In this document: piece by piece, positions 2,940 through 44,918 of the stretch
Layout of the letters: the number at the start of each line of letters is the position of its first letter
Position numbering within the stretch: position 1 is the first letter of the stretch
Sequence record: OP870147.1
Length of the DNA stretch: 64,000 nucleotides
Strand: one strand, 5' to 3'
Origin: Escherichia phage vB_Eco_F31
Translations under genes and position numbers: made by a program
The notes under the pieces: model-generated
Database searches by the model: none
Seen by the model: only the letters and a program-made list of their open reading frames with translations
What the model was told of the DNA's origin: nothing

Positions 2940-5256
<2,317 letters not shown>

Positions 5257-5283: not shown

Positions 5284-7263
5284 ATGGCACTTCTCTCTCC
5301 GGGCGTTGAGCTCAAAGAAACTACCGTACAGAGTACTGTAGTTAATAACTCCACTGGTACTGCTGCCCTGGCTGGAAAATTCCAATGGGGACCTGCATTC
5401 CAGATTAAACAAATCACTGATGAAGTTGCATTAGTTGATATGTTTGGTACTCCTAATACGGATACAGCAGATTATTTCATGTCTGCTATGAACTTCCTTC
5501 AATATGGTAATGACCTTCGTGTTGTACGCGCAGTTGATCGTGATACTGCTAAGAACTCATCTCCTGTAGCAGGCAATATTGAATTCACAATCTCTGCTGC
5601 TGGTAGTAACTATGCGGTTGGTGATAAAATTATCGTTAAGTATTTGACCGAAACTGTTGAAGCAGATGGTTATGTCACTTCAGTTGATGTCGATGGTAAA
5701 ATTCGTAACATTTATATCCCAACCGGTAAAATTATTGCTCGTGCAAAAGAAATTAATGAATATCCGGCATTGGGTTCTAACTGGACCGCCGAAGTTGCCA
5801 GTTCTTCTGGACTTTCTGGCGTTATTACAATTGGTTCTATCGTAACCGATTCGGGTATTCTGTTAACTGAAGTTGAAACTTCTGAAGAAGCTATTACTTC
5901 TCTAACTTTCCAAGAATCTATTAAAAAATATGGTGTCCCAGGCGTAGTTGCTCTTTATCCTGGTGAACTTGGCGACCAGCTCGAAATTGAAATCGTATCT
6001 AAAGCAGACTATGACAAAGGTGCTTCAGCCCAGTTAAAAATTTATCCTGATGGTGGTACTCGTGCATCTACTGCTAAAGCAATCTTTGGGTATGGTCCAC
6101 AAACTGATGACCAATATGCAATTATCGTTCGTCGTAACGATGCTGTAGTCCAGAGTGTAGTTCTTTCTACTAAACGTGGTGAACGCGATATTTATGGTAG
6201 TAATATCTTTATTGATGATTTCTTTGCTAAAGGCGCAAGCAATTATATTTTCGCTACTGCACAAGGTTGGCCAAAAGGTTTCTCTGGCGTAATCAAACTG
6301 GGTGGTGGCTTATCATCTAATGAAACGGTTGACGCTGGTGATTTAATGGAAGCTTGGGATTTGTTTGCTGACCGCGAATCTGTTAATGCGCAGTTGTTTA
6401 TTGCCGGTTCTTGTGCAGGTGAATCTTTAGAAGTTGCTTCTACAGTTCAGAAACATGTTGTAGCAATTGGTGATTCTCGTCAAGATTGCTTGGTTCTTTG
6501 CTCACCGCCACGTGCAACTATAGTCGGTATTCCTGTTAATCGTGCAGTTGATAATCTGGTTGATTGGCGTACTGCATCAGGAACTTACACTGATAATAAC
6601 TTTAATGTAAGTTCTACTTACGCGGCTATTGACGGTAACTATAAATATCAATATGACAAATATAATGATGTGAATCGTTGGGTTCCATTAGCTGCTGATA
6701 TTGCTGGACTTTGTGCTCGTACAGACAATATTTCTCAGCCTTGGATGTCTCCTGCCGGTTATAACCGTGGACAAATTCTTAACGTTATTAAGCTTGCAAT
6801 TGAAACTCGCCAAGCGCAGCGTGATCGTTTGTATCAGGAAGCTATTAACCCTGTCACTGGTACCGGTGGTGATGGGTATGTTCTGTACGGTGATAAAACT
6901 GCCACTTCTGTTCCTTCACCATTTGACCGTATTAACGTTCGTCGTTTGTTCAATATGGTTAAAACGAACATTGGTTCAGCATCTAAATATCGCCTGTTTG
7001 AATTGAACAACGCATTTACCCGTTCTTCTTTCCGTACAGAGACTTCTCAATATCTACAGGGTATTAAAGCTCTTGGTGGTGTATATAACTTTAAAGTTGT
7101 TTGTGATACTACCAATAACACCCCAGCAGTTATCGACCGTAATGAATTTGTAGCTACTTTCTACTTACAACCTGCCCGCTCGATAAATTATATTACATTG
7201 AACTTTGTAGCAACAGCAACTGGTGCCGATTTCGACGAACTAATTGGTGCTGTAGGTGGTTAA
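5284..7263 (+). CDS. 18: tail sheath protein gp18
   Basis: 659 aa, same length as T4 gp18; follows gene 17, precedes gene 19. Confidence 0.95.
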   Translation: MALLSPGVELKETTVQSTVVNNSTGTAALAGKFQWGPAFQIKQITDEVALVDMFGTPNTDTADYFMSAMNFLQYGNDLRVVRAVDRDTAKNSSPVAGNIEFTISAAGSNYAVGDKIIVKYLTETVEADGYVTSVDVDGKIRNIYIPTGKIIARAKEINEYPALGSNWTAEVASSSGLSGVITIGSIVTDSGILLTEVETSEEAITSLTFQESIKKYGVPGVVALYPGELGDQLEIEIVSKADYDKGASAQLKIYPDGGTRASTAKAIFGYGPQTDDQYAIIVRRNDAVVQSVVLSTKRGERDIYGSNIFIDDFFAKGASNYIFATAQGWPKGFSGVIKLGGGLSSNETVDAGDLMEAWDLFADRESVNAQLFIAGSCAGESLEVASTVQKHVVAIGDSRQDCLVLCSPPRATIVGIPVNRAVDNLVDWRTASGTYTDNNFNVSSTYAAIDGNYKYQYDKYNDVNRWVPLAADIAGLCARTDNISQPWMSPAGYNRGQILNVIKLAIETRQAQRDRLYQEAINPVTGTGGDGYVLYGDKTATSVPSPFDRINVRRLFNMVKTNIGSASKYRLFELNNAFTRSSFRTETSQYLQGIKALGGVYNFKVVCDTTNNTPAVIDRNEFVATFYLQPARSINYITLNFVATATGADFDELIGAVGG

Positions 7264-13609: not shown

Positions 13610-13639
13610 ATAGTATCACATACCAAATACGTTGTAAAC
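13610..13639 (-). promoter_or_regulatory. early-promoter-like motif GTTTAC-N18-TACTAT
   Basis: Minus strand GTTTAC ... TGATACTATAGAC, then AGGAG and ATG of the 89-aa ORF. Confidence 0.45.
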
Positions 13640-29227: not shown

Positions 29228-29257
29228 ATAGTATCACACATCCATGTGTTTGTAAAC
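29228..29257 (-). promoter_or_regulatory. early-promoter-like motif GTTTAC-N18-TACTAT
   Basis: Minus strand GTTTAC ... TGATACTAT followed by ATCAACAACATGAGGAAA leader; directly after alt stop. Confidence 0.45.
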
Positions 29258-36145: not shown

Positions 36146-36174
36146 ATAATAACATAACCTGTACCAAAGTAAAC
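36146..36174 (-). promoter_or_regulatory. early-promoter-like motif GTTTAC-N17-TATTAT
   Basis: Minus strand GTTTAC ... TATTATAGACCTGTACCA; -10 bracketed by inverted repeat GGTACAGG/CCTGTACC. Confidence 0.45.
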
Positions 36175-38213: not shown

Positions 38214-38795
38214 TTATTCACCACAAAAGTTTCGGATTTGTTCCCAATTCAGAGAACGAAGATTATTACGAGAGTACTGAATTACTTCAATACCGGCTTG
38301 TTTTAGAATGTCTGCCCAATTTTCAGGAGATCGGTCGTATAATTCTGCATATACAACCTTTTTAATACCTGACTGTGTAATAGCTTTAGTGCAATCAGGA
38401 CACGGAGAAAGCGTCGTATATAACGTAGCACCTTCAATAGAATTACCTTTACGAGCTGCAAATAAAATTGCATTCAGTTCAGCATGGATTTCATTATTAG
38501 CAGACCATGCACTATGAGCGGCCCGATGTTCTTTAGCCAAAACAAAATTATCCACCCGTCCAAATGCTGTAGTGCCTTCTTTATGCCCAGCAACGATGAC
38601 CGGGCTTGGTTTATTCTTCAACCAACCGTTTTCGGATGCATGTTCGCAACAGTTTGTACCACCTGAAGGAGAGCCATTATAACCTGTAGAAATAATGCGT
38701 CCATCTTTTTCAATGACGGCGCCAACTTTCCATGAACAACATTTTGATTCTTGAGAAATCAGATATGCAATCTGAAGGTATGTGCTAGCTTTCAT
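38214..38795 (-). CDS. cd: dCMP deaminase
   Basis: 193 aa, same length as T4 Cd; zinc-binding deaminase motifs (HAE..., SPCPDC). Confidence 0.9.
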   Translation of the reverse strand: MKASTYLQIAYLISQESKCCSWKVGAVIEKDGRIISTGYNGSPSGGTNCCEHASENGWLKNKPSPVIVAGHKEGTTAFGRVDNFVLAKEHRAAHSAWSANNEIHAELNAILFAARKGNSIEGATLYTTLSPCPDCTKAITQSGIKKVVYAELYDRSPENWADILKQAGIEVIQYSRNNLRSLNWEQIRNFCGE

Positions 38796-39787
38796 TATTG
38801 AACCTTATTAATATAAGTTAACAGCTCTTTAGTTTGTTCCCAACTGATGCACGCATCGGTAACGGAAACGCCATAGGACATATTATCAGAAATTTTTTGA
38901 TTTCCTTCATGTAGGAACGATTCTATCATAATTCCTTTGACCAAATCATTAGCTGCTAAATTTTTACCAATACCAATTTGATTGCTATAATGCCCATCAG
39001 CGTTTGCATGGCTACAGTCAACCATTACATAATGATTCAGACCTACTGCCCTTGCTTTGTTAGAAGCTTCTTGAATATCAGAAGAATGATAGTTCGGGCC
39101 GTTGGTCCCGCCACGCAATACGATATGCGTATTCTGATTACCTTCAGCTTCAACAATGCCTACAGTACCATCGACGTCCATACCCATATACCGATGAGGC
39201 CAGGCGGCACTATACATCGCGTCTGTAGCTACTTTAATAGAACCATTGGTTGCGTTCTTGAAGCCTACGCACATCGGTAGACCTGAAGCAATTTCACGAT
39301 GTGTCTGACTTTCAGTCGTACGGGCACCAATAGCAACCCATGAGAAAATACCAGAAAGATACTTAATCGTGAATGGGTCTAATACTTCAGTTGCTAATGG
39401 AAGTCCCATACGTAGAAGTTTACGACACAATGTTCGTGCAACTATAAGACCGTGGTTCATATCAAAACTTCCGTCAAGATATGGATCATTTACAAGACCT
39501 TTCCAACCTACGGTAGTTCGAGGCTTTTCAAAATAAACGCGCATCACTAACAGAACATTAGGAAGACGAGTTTGAAGTTCAGCCAGACGTTTGCCGTATT
39601 CAACAGCAGCAATAGGGTCATGAATTGAACAAGGACCTACAACAATAAGTTTGCGTGGGTCTTCACCGTTCATAATCGAATTAACTTGTTCGCGATGAGA
39701 AGCCACTTGTGATGCGTAAGCTTCCGACAAAGGAATAATCTCGGCCAGTTCTTTTGGAGAAATAAGTTTTCCGACGACAGGTAACAT
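38795..39787 (-). CDS. 3-deoxy-D-arabino-heptulosonate-7-phosphate (DAHP) synthase, class I (AroG/AroF/AroH family)
   Basis: 330 aa; VGPCSIHD, VYFEKPRTTVGWKGL, GARTTESQ, DCSHAN, ESFLHEGNQ, SVTDACISWE align with E. coli AroG catalytic/metal-binding motifs; AAGGA RBS before ATG at 39787. Confidence 0.9.
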   Translation of the reverse strand: MLPVVGKLISPKELAEIIPLSEAYASQVASHREQVNSIMNGEDPRKLIVVGPCSIHDPIAAVEYGKRLAELQTRLPNVLLVMRVYFEKPRTTVGWKGLVNDPYLDGSFDMNHGLIVARTLCRKLLRMGLPLATEVLDPFTIKYLSGIFSWVAIGARTTESQTHREIASGLPMCVGFKNATNGSIKVATDAMYSAAWPHRYMGMDVDGTVGIVEAEGNQNTHIVLRGGTNGPNYHSSDIQEASNKARAVGLNHYVMVDCSHANADGHYSNQIGIGKNLAANDLVKGIMIESFLHEGNQKISDNMSYGVSVTDACISWEQTKELLTYINKVQ

Positions 39788-40173: not shown

Positions 40174-40203
40174 ATAGTATCACAACTCCACCATGTTGTA
40201 AAC
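40174..40203 (-). promoter_or_regulatory. early-promoter-like motif GTTTAC-N18-TACTAT
   Basis: Minus strand GTTTAC ... TGATACTAT, leader ...CAATGAGGAAATC then ATG of 78-aa gene. Confidence 0.45.

Positions 40204-40884: not shown

Positions 40885-40885
<1 letters not shown>
40694..40885 (-). CDS. hypothetical protein (63 aa)
   Basis: ATG at 40885 overlaps pseT stop; overlaps next ORF by 20 nt. Confidence 0.45.
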
Positions 40886-41971
<1,086 letters not shown>

Positions 41972-41972
<1 letters not shown>

Positions 41973-42271
41973 TATTTGATTCCTAAGAAAGCTTCAAGAA
42001 TACGAATGTTGAGTTCGCGCCGGTCTTTATTAATTTCAGCAACGTTTTTATTAATTGACGTACTTCTAACGTTTGAAGAAATAAATTTAATCATATGACT
42101 TTTGAGTTGTTGCAAATCCAACCCTTTTTCTTTAGCAGCTTTACGAAGAGCTTTACCTGCTTCATCTAGTGCTTTTGCCGCATCTTTATCATAATTGCCA
42201 AGTGACATTCCGCGGCAGATATCAATATACTCATCAGACCGTTTGATGTAATTCTCTAGTAATGTTTTCAT
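41972..42271 (-). CDS. hypothetical protein (99 aa)
   Basis: ATG at 42271 with AGGA RBS and early-promoter motif (perfect TATAAT) upstream. Confidence 0.5.
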
Positions 42272-42299
42272 TTAGATTTCCTCAATTATCCATAGGAGC

Positions 42300-42329
42300 A
42301 TTATACTCTGCTCCCGAGAGTTTGTAAAC
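42300..42329 (-). promoter_or_regulatory. early-promoter-like motif GTTTAC-N18-TATAAT
   Basis: Minus strand GTTTAC ... TATAAT (perfect -10), then GAGGA and ATG of 99-aa gene. Confidence 0.5.
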
Positions 42330-42553
42330 TATTTTACTAAAGATTCAATATACTCATGAAGAGCTTTAGTCGCTACTGCCCACTTATTCTGATATTCATT
42401 TTTCAGATTAGCACGAGACTGAACTAACAAGCGGTCATTAGTCGGAGGCAAAGATTCTAATCGTTGAATCTGGCGTCCATAAATCATAGCCGCCATTTCA
42501 GATTCATAGATAAGCCCTTTAATGTATTCATGCTGTTCTTTAGTCATTGGCAT
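42329..42553 (-). CDS. hypothetical protein (74 aa)
   Basis: ATG ORF overlapping o-spanin end. Confidence 0.5.
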   Translation of the reverse strand: MPMTKEQHEYIKGLIYESEMAAMIYGRQIQRLESLPPTNDRLLVQSRANLKNEYQNKWAVATKALHEYIESLVK

Positions 42554-42834
42554 TTTTCCTCTTTTAAACCACTACGATAATAACATAACATAGTCTTCTG
42601 GTCATGTATATATCTTTTTACGTCGTTTAACCAGATACGAAATTCTTGAGAGTCTTCAAATGGCATTCCAACCCACGGATTACCATCAATAACCTTTACT
42701 TGCCATTTCTGGTTGTATTCGGAAATAGGCGTAGGCCATGAAGGATGTAAAGTTTCTTTAGGGCTTACTGGCACATCCTGAGTACATCCAACTAGGAGAC
42801 CAATAGATAATACAGCCACAGTTAATTTAATCAT
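42544..42834 (-). CDS. pseT.2: outer-membrane spanin (Rz1-like lipoprotein)
   Basis: 96 aa; signal peptide with lipobox LLVGC; adjacent to an i-spanin-like gene as T4 pseT.2/pseT.3. Confidence 0.65.
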   Translation of the reverse strand: MIKLTVAVLSIGLLVGCTQDVPVSPKETLHPSWPTPISEYNQKWQVKVIDGNPWVGMPFEDSQEFRIWLNDVKRYIHDQKTMLCYYRSGLKEEKCQ

Positions 42835-43187
42835 TCTGAGAGCTTCCTGAGGTCTTCTGCAAAGGAATCGAAGGACCTGTTGATTTGTTTTTCGACCAAT
42901 CCTGGTTTACTTGCCACCACGTTCTTCTTCTTCGAATCCTTACGGAGCTTTTCATTTTCGGCCTTAAGTTGGTCAGCTAAAACACGATTCTTATAAGTCA
43001 TTTCTTCGATTGACTGATATTGAGCTTTGAAGTCGTCTAATACTTTAGCATTGTTTTTAGCAGTCTCTTTAACAGAAGCTAATTCAGTATTCAACGAATC
43101 AACTTTGTTGTTTAAGATAACTATTGTTATAGTAGAAACTAGAGCAAAAGCTGCTACTATAGCATAAATCGGATTTACTTTAAGCAT
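42831..43187 (-). CDS. pseT.3: inner-membrane spanin (Rz-like)
   Basis: 118 aa; N-terminal transmembrane helix (IYAIVAAFALVSTITIVIL) then coiled-coil; between alc and o-spanin. Confidence 0.65.
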   Translation of the reverse strand: MLKVNPIYAIVAAFALVSTITIVILNNKVDSLNTELASVKETAKNNAKVLDDFKAQYQSIEEMTYKNRVLADQLKAENEKLRKDSKKKNVVASKPGLVEKQINRSFDSFAEDLRKLSE

Positions 43188-43675
43188 GTTTTAATAATCT
43201 CAATGATTTCATCTCGGGATAATCCATTGATAAGAACGGTTTTCAAACCATCACACTGGATTTTGTACGATTCAAACAATACACACAACTCTTCTGCTGT
43301 ATGATATGGACTTGAAATTCCGAGGCGGTTGAATTTGTCGGTAAGAGGGTCGCAAATAATGTAGAATTTTATACCTGCGATATGTACGTTTGGTTGACTA
43401 ATATTAACGAAAACATTAGCGTCATATTTAGTCAAATTGTTTTGAAGAAATTCTACCATGGCATTAACTGCTTCTGGCATCGCTTCGCGTTTCTCTTCAG
43501 CGTATCGGGTGGAATACTCTTTTTGTTTTACTTTCTTTTTAAGATTTTTGGCCAGTGTAACACGTAGGTCAGTAAGATAACCAACTGGACGTCCTTTCTT
43601 AAAGACTCGGATTCCGTCAGTTGTGTCTCCAAAAGCGGTTACGACCATATCATTAGTAATCAATTGCATATTCAT
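43175..43675 (-). CDS. alc: Alc (inhibitor of host transcription on dC-DNA)
   Basis: 166 aa (T4 Alc 167 aa); position between rnlA and spanins as in T4. Confidence 0.7.
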   Translation of the reverse strand: MNMQLITNDMVVTAFGDTTDGIRVFKKGRPVGYLTDLRVTLAKNLKKKVKQKEYSTRYAEEKREAMPEAVNAMVEFLQNNLTKYDANVFVNISQPNVHIAGIKFYIICDPLTDKFNRLGISSPYHTAEELCVLFESYKIQCDGLKTVLINGLSRDEIIEIIKTCLK

Positions 43676-43705: not shown

Positions 43706-43735
43706 ATAGTAACACCTTCCTTGGTGTTTGTAAAC
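43706..43735 (-). promoter_or_regulatory. early-promoter-like motif GTTTAC-N18-TACTAT upstream of alc
   Basis: Minus strand GTTTAC ... TACTAT, then GAGGAG and ATG of alc; directly after rnlA stop. Confidence 0.45.
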
Positions 43736-43737
43736 CA

Positions 43738-44871
<1,134 letters not shown>

Positions 44872-44888: not shown

Positions 44889-44918
44889 ATTGTACCACAA
44901 TCCTTGTGGTATGTAAAC
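44889..44918 (-). promoter_or_regulatory. early-promoter-like motif GTTTAC-N18-TACAAT upstream of rnlA
   Basis: Minus strand GTTTAC ... TACAAT; spacer contains inverted repeat CCACAAggaTTGTGG; then GAGGA and ATG. Confidence 0.45.

Follow-up and report, generated by a model that had tools for sequence, protein, structure and literature searches.

Introduction

Promoter-early stem-loop (PeSL) cassettes have been described at indel break-points in the hyperplastic regions of T4-type phage genomes; in them the stem-loop lies upstream of the -35 hexamer, and the consensus of their PST/T4-type promoters is TTTACW-N17-TAYWAT (Arbiol et al., 2010, PMC2839356; Comeau et al., 2014, PMC4122927). The early promoter consensus of T4, as quoted in GenBank record OL960576, is GTTTAC-N14-gtggTAttaT (Miller et al., 2003). 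Here we analyze a variable gene slot of Escherichia phage vB_Eco_F31 (sequence record OP870147.1; 64,000 nucleotides, hereafter the window), which is bounded by pseT.2, encoding the o-spanin, and pseT, encoding polynucleotide 5'-kinase/3'-phosphatase (polynucleotide kinase, PNK), and contains open reading frames (ORFs) of 74, 99, and 63 amino acids (aa). A preliminary description of this DNA had assigned the 63-aa ORF to pseT.1 and had interpreted the 99- and 74-aa ORFs, together with an early promoter of their own, as an accessory insertion between pseT.1 and the spanin pair. Our comparison indicates that the slot is very probably the standard RB69-group version of a gene slot that varies among T-even phages.

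Results

Gene identities in the slot

The genes of the locus are all encoded on the minus strand and follow one another, in the direction of transcription, as rnlA, alc, i-spanin, o-spanin, the 74-aa ORF, a 57-bp gap, the 99-aa ORF, the 63-aa ORF, and pseT. In T4, the genes pseT, pseT.1, pseT.2, pseT.3, alc, and rnlA occur in the same order, with zero genes between pseT and pseT.1. Both small ORFs of the preliminary description are present as it gave them, and its labels for the o- and i-spanin agree with the PHROG matches. The o-spanin is 68% identical to T4 PseT.2; the product of pseT is 74-80% identical to PseT of T4 and PP01 (tblastn), and its gene is annotated as polynucleotide kinase in APCEc01 and RB69.

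The 74-aa ORF aligns with T4 PseT.1 (NP_049835) over 68 residues (E 2e-42) and falls into its PHROG with an E-value of 8e-38; the orthologous gene is named pseT.1 in RB69 and PP01. Such orthologs were detected in 815 phage records, and in T4, PP01, RB69, and the window the gene lies directly downstream of pseT.2 and overlaps it. Homology and gene order together identify the 74-aa ORF as the ortholog of T4 pseT.1. Its start in the ORF list is 42553 (MPMTKEQ...), while the third codon, at 42547, is annotated in other records, e.g., APCEc01; the latter is likely the true start, which would yield a protein of 72 aa and an ATGA overlap with the o-spanin stop codon. The 63-aa ORF gave no BLASTP alignment with T4 PseT.1 at E-values up to 100, and the two belong to different PHROGs (8683 and 2347, respectively), so that the earlier gene labels were off by one. 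Since the 74-aa ORF is pseT.1, and pseT and pseT.1 are adjacent in T4, the genes that T4 lacks are the 63- and 99-aa ORFs. These are situated between pseT and pseT.1, on the kinase side of the slot and not on the spanin side. Two extra small genes relative to T4 do exist, as had been proposed, but the pair consists of the 63- and 99-aa ORFs, the 74-aa ORF being T4's own pseT.1, and the proposed placement next to the spanin pair does not hold.

Over the 773 bp that comprise the 63-, 99-, and 74-aa ORFs, the window matches Escherichia phage vB_EQ1 at 100% and APCEc01 at 99% identity, and the same segment was found at 95-99% identity in approximately 143 further records, all from the genus Mosigvirus (RB69 group), to which this similarity assigns the window.

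Distribution of the 99-aa gene and the T4 junction

Homologs of the 99-aa protein were detected by tblastn in 708 phage records, and those encoded next to pseT span the genera Mosigvirus, Tequatrovirus, Dhakavirus, Gaprivervirus, and Tegunavirus. Loci with the gene were extracted from Tequatrovirus (PP01, T6, and IMG/VR genomes), Dhakavirus (WG01, IME281), Gaprivervirus (VR26), Tegunavirus (TG1), and Mosigvirus; in 20 of 20 carrier loci the gene is either directly upstream of pseT or parted from it only by the 63-aa gene. The protein is 63% identical to PP01_228 and differs from the full-length RB69 ORF at 5-6 of 99 residues (approximately 94-95% identity), and Foldseek returned a protein, annotated as RB69ORF231c, with 96% identity over 78 residues. 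A profile search against 1.84 billion representatives recovered the family in only about five clusters and gave no convincing score to any outside family. Three further hits, to long proteins (E 6e-5 to 7e-4), were considered as possible relatives and rejected: they matched in several short stretches, taken as low-complexity helical matches. By its distribution, the 99-aa gene is an old neighbor of pseT across the Tevenvirinae and not a local insertion, contrary to the preliminary description.

The T4 junction was surveyed with a 301-bp probe across pseT.1/pseT in a spread sample, in which 39 Tequatrovirus records covered the junction completely. An insertion of 300-320 bp is present in 36 of them, including T6, RB32, RB10, RB68, and PST, and the direct junction of the T4 type occurs in three (two T4 records and one other). 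In T6, the sequence reads AATAAATGAAAAC, then the 99-aa-type ORF, then TAAATGATGAAAAAG; in T4, it reads AATAAATGAAAAAG. The seven-nucleotide repeat ATGAAAA opens both the T6-type 99-aa ORF and pseT, and the T4 junction is the product expected from recombination between the two copies. From parsimony and the repeat, though from no rooted tree, we infer that the T4 lineage deleted the 99-aa gene by recombination at ATGAAAA. The segments compared at this junction were positions 3900-3915 of the T4 locus extract and 449-751 of the T6 locus extract.

A similar difference is seen between two dhakaviruses: WG01 contains a 160-aa gene (locus extract 1022-1504) which IME281 lacks (approximately 1492), and the two sequences differ from ATG to ATG across TATGA. 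The modules of the slot would, from these cases, be gained and lost exactly from start codon to start codon via microhomologies of 5-7 nt.

The synteny comparison suggested in the preliminary description gave a divided answer: T4 lacks the 63- and 99-aa genes, the 99-aa gene is present in most close relatives, and all three small genes are present in all mosigviruses examined.

The 63-aa gene and the content of the slot

Homologs of the 63-aa protein were found in 240 phage records. In 148 of these, all Mosigvirus, the identity is at least 95%, and the RB69 homolog, RB69ORF230c, shares 62 of 63 residues. The remaining relatives, at 50-70%, come from phages of Klebsiella, Enterobacter, and Serratia, in which the position may be similar or different: just upstream of pseT in Kanagawavirus, near motA in the Klebsiella phages of Jiaodavirus, and in Serratia jumbo phages. 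On this pattern the 63-aa gene is a real addition of Mosigvirus and behaves as a small mobile gene.

Between pseT.2 and pseT, T4 has pseT.1 only, most of Tequatrovirus pseT.1 and the 99-aa gene, and Mosigvirus pseT.1, the promoter, and the 99- and 63-aa genes. The slot of Dhakavirus contains a 35-aa hydrophobic ORF, the promoter, the 160-aa gene in some genomes, and the 99-aa gene; that of Gaprivervirus, the 35-aa ORF, a variant of the promoter, the 160-aa gene, and the 99-aa gene; that of Kanagawavirus, a 32-aa ORF, a GC hairpin, the 160-aa gene, and the 63-aa gene; and that of Tegunavirus, a 159-aa gene, a 73-aa gene, and the 99-aa gene. All modules of the slot belong to PHROGs annotated as "unknown function."

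The 35-aa hydrophobic ORF (phrog_23289; WG01 locus extract 851-958) replaces pseT.1 after the o-spanin gene in dhaka- and gapriverviruses, and its TAG stop codon overlaps the -35 hexamer of the conserved promoter, as does the stop codon of pseT.1 in Mosigvirus. It could encode a small membrane peptide next to the spanins.

A natural variant of the two genes was observed in a 56-kb metagenome contig, where an 83-aa protein combines a match to residues 1-57 of the 99-aa protein with one to approximately 70% of the 63-aa protein at 98% identity. The two genes appear to have been fused in it by an in-frame deletion.

Operon structure and proposed expression

The stop codon of the 99-aa gene overlaps the ATG of the 63-aa gene by 1 nt (TAATG), and the stop codon of the latter overlaps the GTG of pseT by 4 nt (GTGA); where the 63-aa gene is absent, the 99-aa gene overlaps the ATG of pseT instead (ATGATG). 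The overlaps therefore suggest one early transcript of the three genes with coupled translation, and hence a promoter that would serve pseT as much as the 99-aa gene. Most likely, it drives the unit of the 99-aa gene, the 63-aa gene, and pseT, and beyond, rather than a lone accessory gene. An early-type promoter does precede the 99-aa gene, as had been noted, but it would probably not serve this gene alone.

In the proposed scheme, host RNA polymerase would initiate at the GTTTAC-N18-TATAAT promoter immediately after infection, one message would yield the 99-aa protein, the 63-aa protein, and PNK, and the hairpin described below may damp read-through from upstream early promoters. Both the activity of the promoter and the co-transcription are inferred from the arrangement of the sequence; for initiation right after infection, the conservation of the promoter beyond the synonymous level is indirect support.

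The promoter and hairpin cassette

The exact GTTTAC-N18-TATAAT promoter reported earlier was recovered in the 57-bp gap between the 99- and 74-aa ORFs. Within the 5 kb scanned it ranks first among sigma-70 matches (11 of 12 positions of TTGACA-17-TATAAT), and it is the sole exact occurrence of the pattern in the 64 kb, where 0.02 are expected by chance. A distance of 28 nt separates the promoter from the start codon of the 99-aa gene, and the G of the pseT.1 TAG stop codon is the first base of its -35 hexamer. It has already been annotated in MH243438 and OL960576 and is identical in RB69; in Dhakavirus it is near-identical, and in Gaprivervirus the -35 hexamer is GTATAC. The Shine-Dalgarno (SD) sequence GAGGAAA is invariant in seven of seven aligned loci.

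The pattern TAG-TTTAC-AAACTCTyrGGAGCAGAG-TATAAT-GCTCCTAyGGAT...TTGAGGAAAT...ATG is nearly common to Mosigvirus, Dhakavirus, and Gaprivervirus, in which the flanking genes differ. When the window is compared with WG01 or IME281, 41 of the first 43 nt, from the stop codon to the end of GGAT, are shared, against approximately 50% identity in the 60 nt upstream, 65-67% in the coding DNA of the 99-aa gene, and 72-80% in pseT and the o-spanin gene. Six mosigviruses show a single substitution in the 57-bp gap, compared to synonymous divergence (dS) of 0.07-0.23 in the flanking genes. The cassette is therefore, as judged by its divergence, under stronger constraint than the genes around it and is the best-conserved DNA in the slot.

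The hairpin GGGAGCA-GAGTATAA-TGCTCCT has a predicted folding energy of -10.6 kcal/mol as RNA, with the -10 hexamer in the loop and closing pair; its 74-nt context is modestly unusual against shuffled sequences (z -2.0). The lone Mosigvirus substitution, G to A at the bottom of the stem, turns a G.U pair into A-U. In OL960576, the hairpin bases are annotated as a rho-independent terminator. The hairpin has no U-tract, a terminator scan of the region made no call there, and positions 41500-43000 gave no match in Rfam. A transcript initiated at the promoter would hold only the 3' arm; therefore, the hairpin would form only in DNA or in RNA that reads through from the promoters of alc and rnlA.

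The spacer sequence of the cassette is single-copy in the window, as it is in the genomes of eight other loci. The possibility of a dispersed mobile cassette was considered and rejected, as the window contains no further copy and the IMG/VR genomes only the orthologous site.

Unusually stable hairpins over the spacer and -10 were observed at ten minus-strand early-type promoters (TTTACW-N16-18-TAYWAT) in the window, with a mean minimum free energy (MFE) of -8.1 kcal/mol versus -3.3 +/- 0.65 for shuffled sequences and -4.25 for random windows. In the three strongest of these hairpins (-12 to -18 kcal/mol), the -10 hexamer is located between the stem arms, in the loop or partly paired at the loop end. 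The build of the cassette thus recurs in the window, though not its sequence. The count of promoters with the -10 enclosed by at least 5 pairs does not separate them from shuffled sequences. The arrangement looks like a compact promoter/stem-loop design, unlike the published PeSLs with their stem-loop upstream of the -35. Coordinates of the features are given in Table 1.

Table 1. Position of the slot, its flanking genes and the early-type promoters with hairpins in the window.
Feature	Position	Strand	Evidence
rnlA	43738-44862	-	ORF list
alc	43175-43675	-	ORF list
i-spanin (pseT.3 ortholog)	42831..43187	-	phrog_739 Rz-like spanin, E 7e-35
o-spanin (pseT.2 ortholog), slot boundary	42544..42834	-	phrog_812 Rz-like spanin, E 1e-44; lipobox LLVGC
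pseT.1 ortholog (74-aa ORF)	42329..42553	-	82% identity to T4 PseT.1; phrog_2347
Promoter GTTTAC-N18-TATAAT	42300..42329	-	-35 42329-42324, -10 42305-42300
Stem-loop (7 bp)	42294..42315	-	GGGAGCA-GAGTATAA-TGCTCCT
SD sequence GAGGA	42279..42283	-	7 nt before the ATG of the 99-aa gene
99-aa ORF, RB69ORF231c / RB32ORF217c family	41972..42271	-	phrog_2364, E 8e-48 over 1-99
63-aa ORF, RB69ORF230c family	41781..41972	-	phrog_8683, E 4e-42 over 1-63
pseT, polynucleotide 5'-kinase/3'-phosphatase, 299 aa, GTG start	40885..41784	-	ORF and homology
Hairpin-bearing early-type promoters	40202..40174, 36173..36146, 42328..42300, 29256..29228	-	MFE
Hairpin-bearing early-type promoters, continued	13638..13610, 44917..44889, 43734..43706	-	MFE

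The 99- and 63-aa proteins

The ratio of nonsynonymous to synonymous divergence (dN/dS) is 0.06-0.19 for the 99-aa gene, comparisons with saturated dS included, and 0.03-0.07 for the 63-aa gene, which marks both as real genes under purifying selection. The AlphaFold2 (AF2) model of the 99-aa protein (predicted local distance difference test, pLDDT, 81.6) consists of four helices without beta elements, in agreement with the earlier description of the protein as lysine-rich and predicted helical; it is basic (isoelectric point, pI, 9.55; 20 K+R). The loop between helices 1 and 2 (residues ~20-27) is poorly defined and is the site of almost all substitutions in Mosigvirus and of an insertion of 1-7 residues in Tequatrovirus. 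The 63-aa protein is modeled as a helical hairpin (helices 2-27 and 33-50, pLDDT 81) of near-neutral charge. Both proteins are hydrophilic, with grand average of hydropathy values of -0.41 (63 aa) and -0.54 (99 aa), and no transmembrane segment, signal peptide, or lipobox is visible in either translation.

Their PHROG matches were to unknown-function families, with no lysis family among them, and neither an informative homolog nor an informative structural match was obtained for either. Searches of the three small proteins of the slot against Pfam, NCBIfam, and PADLOC yielded nothing or sub-threshold noise (TnsD, E 0.0014; COMMD8_HN; DUF7438; L22), and the 99-aa profile found no significant match among PDB sequences, the best being the IS3 helix-turn-helix (HTH) protein 2jn6 (E 0.067) and Z-alpha (0.23). 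No paralogs of the 63- and 99-aa proteins were found in the window or in 65 kb of T4. A literature search found no paper on pseT.1, RB69ORF230c/231c, or their PHROG identifiers, and the locus is not mentioned in an accessory-gene screen (PMC12373910).

On the models, both would be small soluble all-helical proteins without catalytic motifs. Most small early proteins of T-even phages are dispensable binders of host or phage macromolecules. We tentatively suggest a similar role here, namely that of early binders of a host or phage macromolecule acting as dispensable accessory or host-interaction factors, with low confidence. For the basic 99-aa protein, the bound target may have to do with the RNA-repair pathway of pseT and rnlA. 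The 99-aa family, as a conserved pseT neighbor restricted to T-even phages, is a reasonable candidate for accessory-gene or anti-defense screens.

Other features of the window

A 330-aa ORF at 38795-39787 (minus strand) corresponds to phospho-2-dehydro-3-deoxyheptonate aldolase (DAHP synthase) in the annotation of APCEc01; no such gene is present in the T4 pseT-cd interval examined. DAHP synthase catalyzes the first step of aromatic amino acid synthesis. Given its absence from that T4 interval, the ORF is apparently an auxiliary metabolic gene of the RB69 group.

Discussion

Alternative explanations

Several other readings of the locus have to be weighed against the conserved slot. A recent accessory insertion of the 99- and 74-aa ORFs with their own promoter between pseT.1 and the spanin pair, maybe affecting lysis, agrees with the reality of both ORFs and the promoter, the lack of the 99-aa gene in T4, and the presence of spanin genes within 300 bp. 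It is nevertheless very unlikely, as the 74-aa ORF is pseT.1, in the same place as in T4, the 99-aa gene is a conserved and widespread neighbor of pseT, and the promoter groups this gene with pseT and sets it apart from the spanins. A role of the 63- and 99-aa genes in lysis is unlikely because neither product has membrane or export signals, unlike the known lysis and lysis-inhibition proteins of T4, and because the promoter separates the genes from the spanins. The earlier association with the lysis genes likewise gives way to the overlaps of 1 and 4 nt, which tie the two genes to pseT, and to the position of the promoter, which divides them from pseT.1 and the spanins. That the frames are open by chance and the promoter match is coincidental would fit short proteins without characterized homologs in AT-rich DNA; its probability is next to nil in view of dN/dS of 0.03-0.19 over many pairs (saturated dS included), full-length conservation in hundreds of genomes, confident and compact AF2 models of both proteins, SD sequences and coupled starts for each ORF, and a promoter whose chance expectation is 0.02 and which varies less than synonymous sites do. 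The label "putative homing endonuclease," given to the 99-aa gene in the BASEL phages Bas47 AlbertHofmann (MZ501047, locus extract 1502-1801) and PaulHMueller (MZ501098), would explain, as would a degenerate form of such an enzyme, why close relatives differ precisely in the presence of the gene. We rejected the label on fold and domain evidence: the four-helix fold without beta elements is incompatible with the catalytic cores of GIY-YIG, HNH, and LAGLIDADG enzymes, no GIY-YIG, HNH, LAGLIDADG, or PD-(D/E)xK match was obtained in Pfam or NCBIfam at E-values up to 1, and 99 aa are too few for an endonuclease plus a DNA-binding domain. The gene also occupies one fixed locus under purifying selection across genera, unlike free-standing homing genes, and we regard the explanation as extremely unlikely.

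A specific link to RNA repair deserves separate consideration. The 99-aa protein, alone or together with the 63-aa protein, could be an accessory of the pseT/rnlA RNA-repair and counter-defense module, either as an RNA- or tRNA-binding helper or as an inhibitor of an anticodon-nuclease variant not found in the usual hosts of T4. Its adjacency to pseT has been kept in five genera despite saturated dS (1.8-3.3) and turnover of neighbors, its stop codon overlaps the start of pseT wherever the 63-aa gene is absent, the protein is basic, and the faint matches given above (2jn6, Z-alpha, TnsD) are HTH-like. All of these matches are below threshold, however, T4 and Kanagawavirus have pseT without the 99-aa gene, the adjacency may be mere shared operon position, and no PADLOC or anti-defense signal was obtained, so that we consider this role unlikely. 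The gene is not essential to tRNA repair, because T4 repairs tRNA without it. A bolder version, which we hold to be a long shot, is that the 99-aa protein is an unrecognized counter-defense component or protector of PNK/Rnl1, e.g., an inhibitor of an anticodon-nuclease type absent from the usual hosts of T4, and that, separately, the promoter with its -10 in a hairpin represents a distinct compact form of PeSL across the early regions of RB69-group phages.

Comparison with known systems

The reading of the locus as the RB69-group version of the variable slot is in line with the described relatives. T4 agrees with the window in its flanks (pseT.1, pseT.2, pseT.3, alc, rnlA, and pseT) and their order; it differs in the absence of the 99-aa gene, the 63-aa gene, and the intergenic promoter, pseT.1 abutting pseT. 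As T4 is the exception at the pseT.1/pseT junction, expectations based on it mislead here. The RB32ORF217c family (T6, RB32, RB14, RB51, PP01_228, PST) provides a homolog 63-67% identical to the 99-aa protein and encoded directly upstream of pseT; its members are 100-106 aa long with an insertion of 1-7 residues in the loop between helices 1 and 2, their start overlaps the pseT.1 stop codon, so there is no promoter cassette of their own, and no 63-aa gene follows.

The promoter shares with the early promoters of T4 the GTTTAC -35 hexamer, 18 nt to a perfect TATAAT, and A-rich bases just upstream, and lacks the TG/gtgg extended -10 which the rnlA and alc promoters of the window possess. In comparison with the PeSLs, TTTACA-N17-TATAAT, followed by GAGGA and ATG, agrees with the promoter consensus of the PST/T4 type (PMC4122927), and the cassette coincides with a break-point: upstream lies pseT.1 in Mosigvirus versus the unrelated 35-aa ORF in dhaka- and gapriverviruses, downstream either the 99-aa or the 160-aa gene, and homology begins at the TAG/-35 and stops at the ATG. 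Common to both are thus an intergenic early sigma-70 promoter, a stem-loop, an SD sequence, and a start codon in a hyperplastic region, with homology breaks at both ends. The 7-bp stem-loop does not lie upstream of the -35 but spans the spacer and encloses the -10, without a U-tract, and the AT-rich upstream part is located inside the coding sequence of pseT.1. The sequence of this particular cassette occurs once per genome and always in the pseT slot. By analogy it can be termed PeSL-like in build and position, but it behaves as a conserved orthologous promoter and not as a mobile repeat, and a role of the hairpin as a terminator is putative.

The closest described arrangement is that of RB69 (NC_004928, 136125-136891), where RB69ORF230c (63 aa), RB69ORF231c, and pseT.1 occur in the same order with identical intergenic sequence. 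It differs in annotation: RB69ORF231c is made to begin at an internal ATG (78 aa), and a "gap" of 120 bp results. The RefSeq start of this gene is probably wrong, because the full 99-aa ORF with its SD sequence and promoter is intact in RB69 (locus extract 5317-5616). The arrangement of the slot has therefore been in the public record since deposition of the RB69 genome and is present in approximately 150 Mosigvirus genomes, and it is typical of the hyperplastic-region variation between T4 and the RB69 group.

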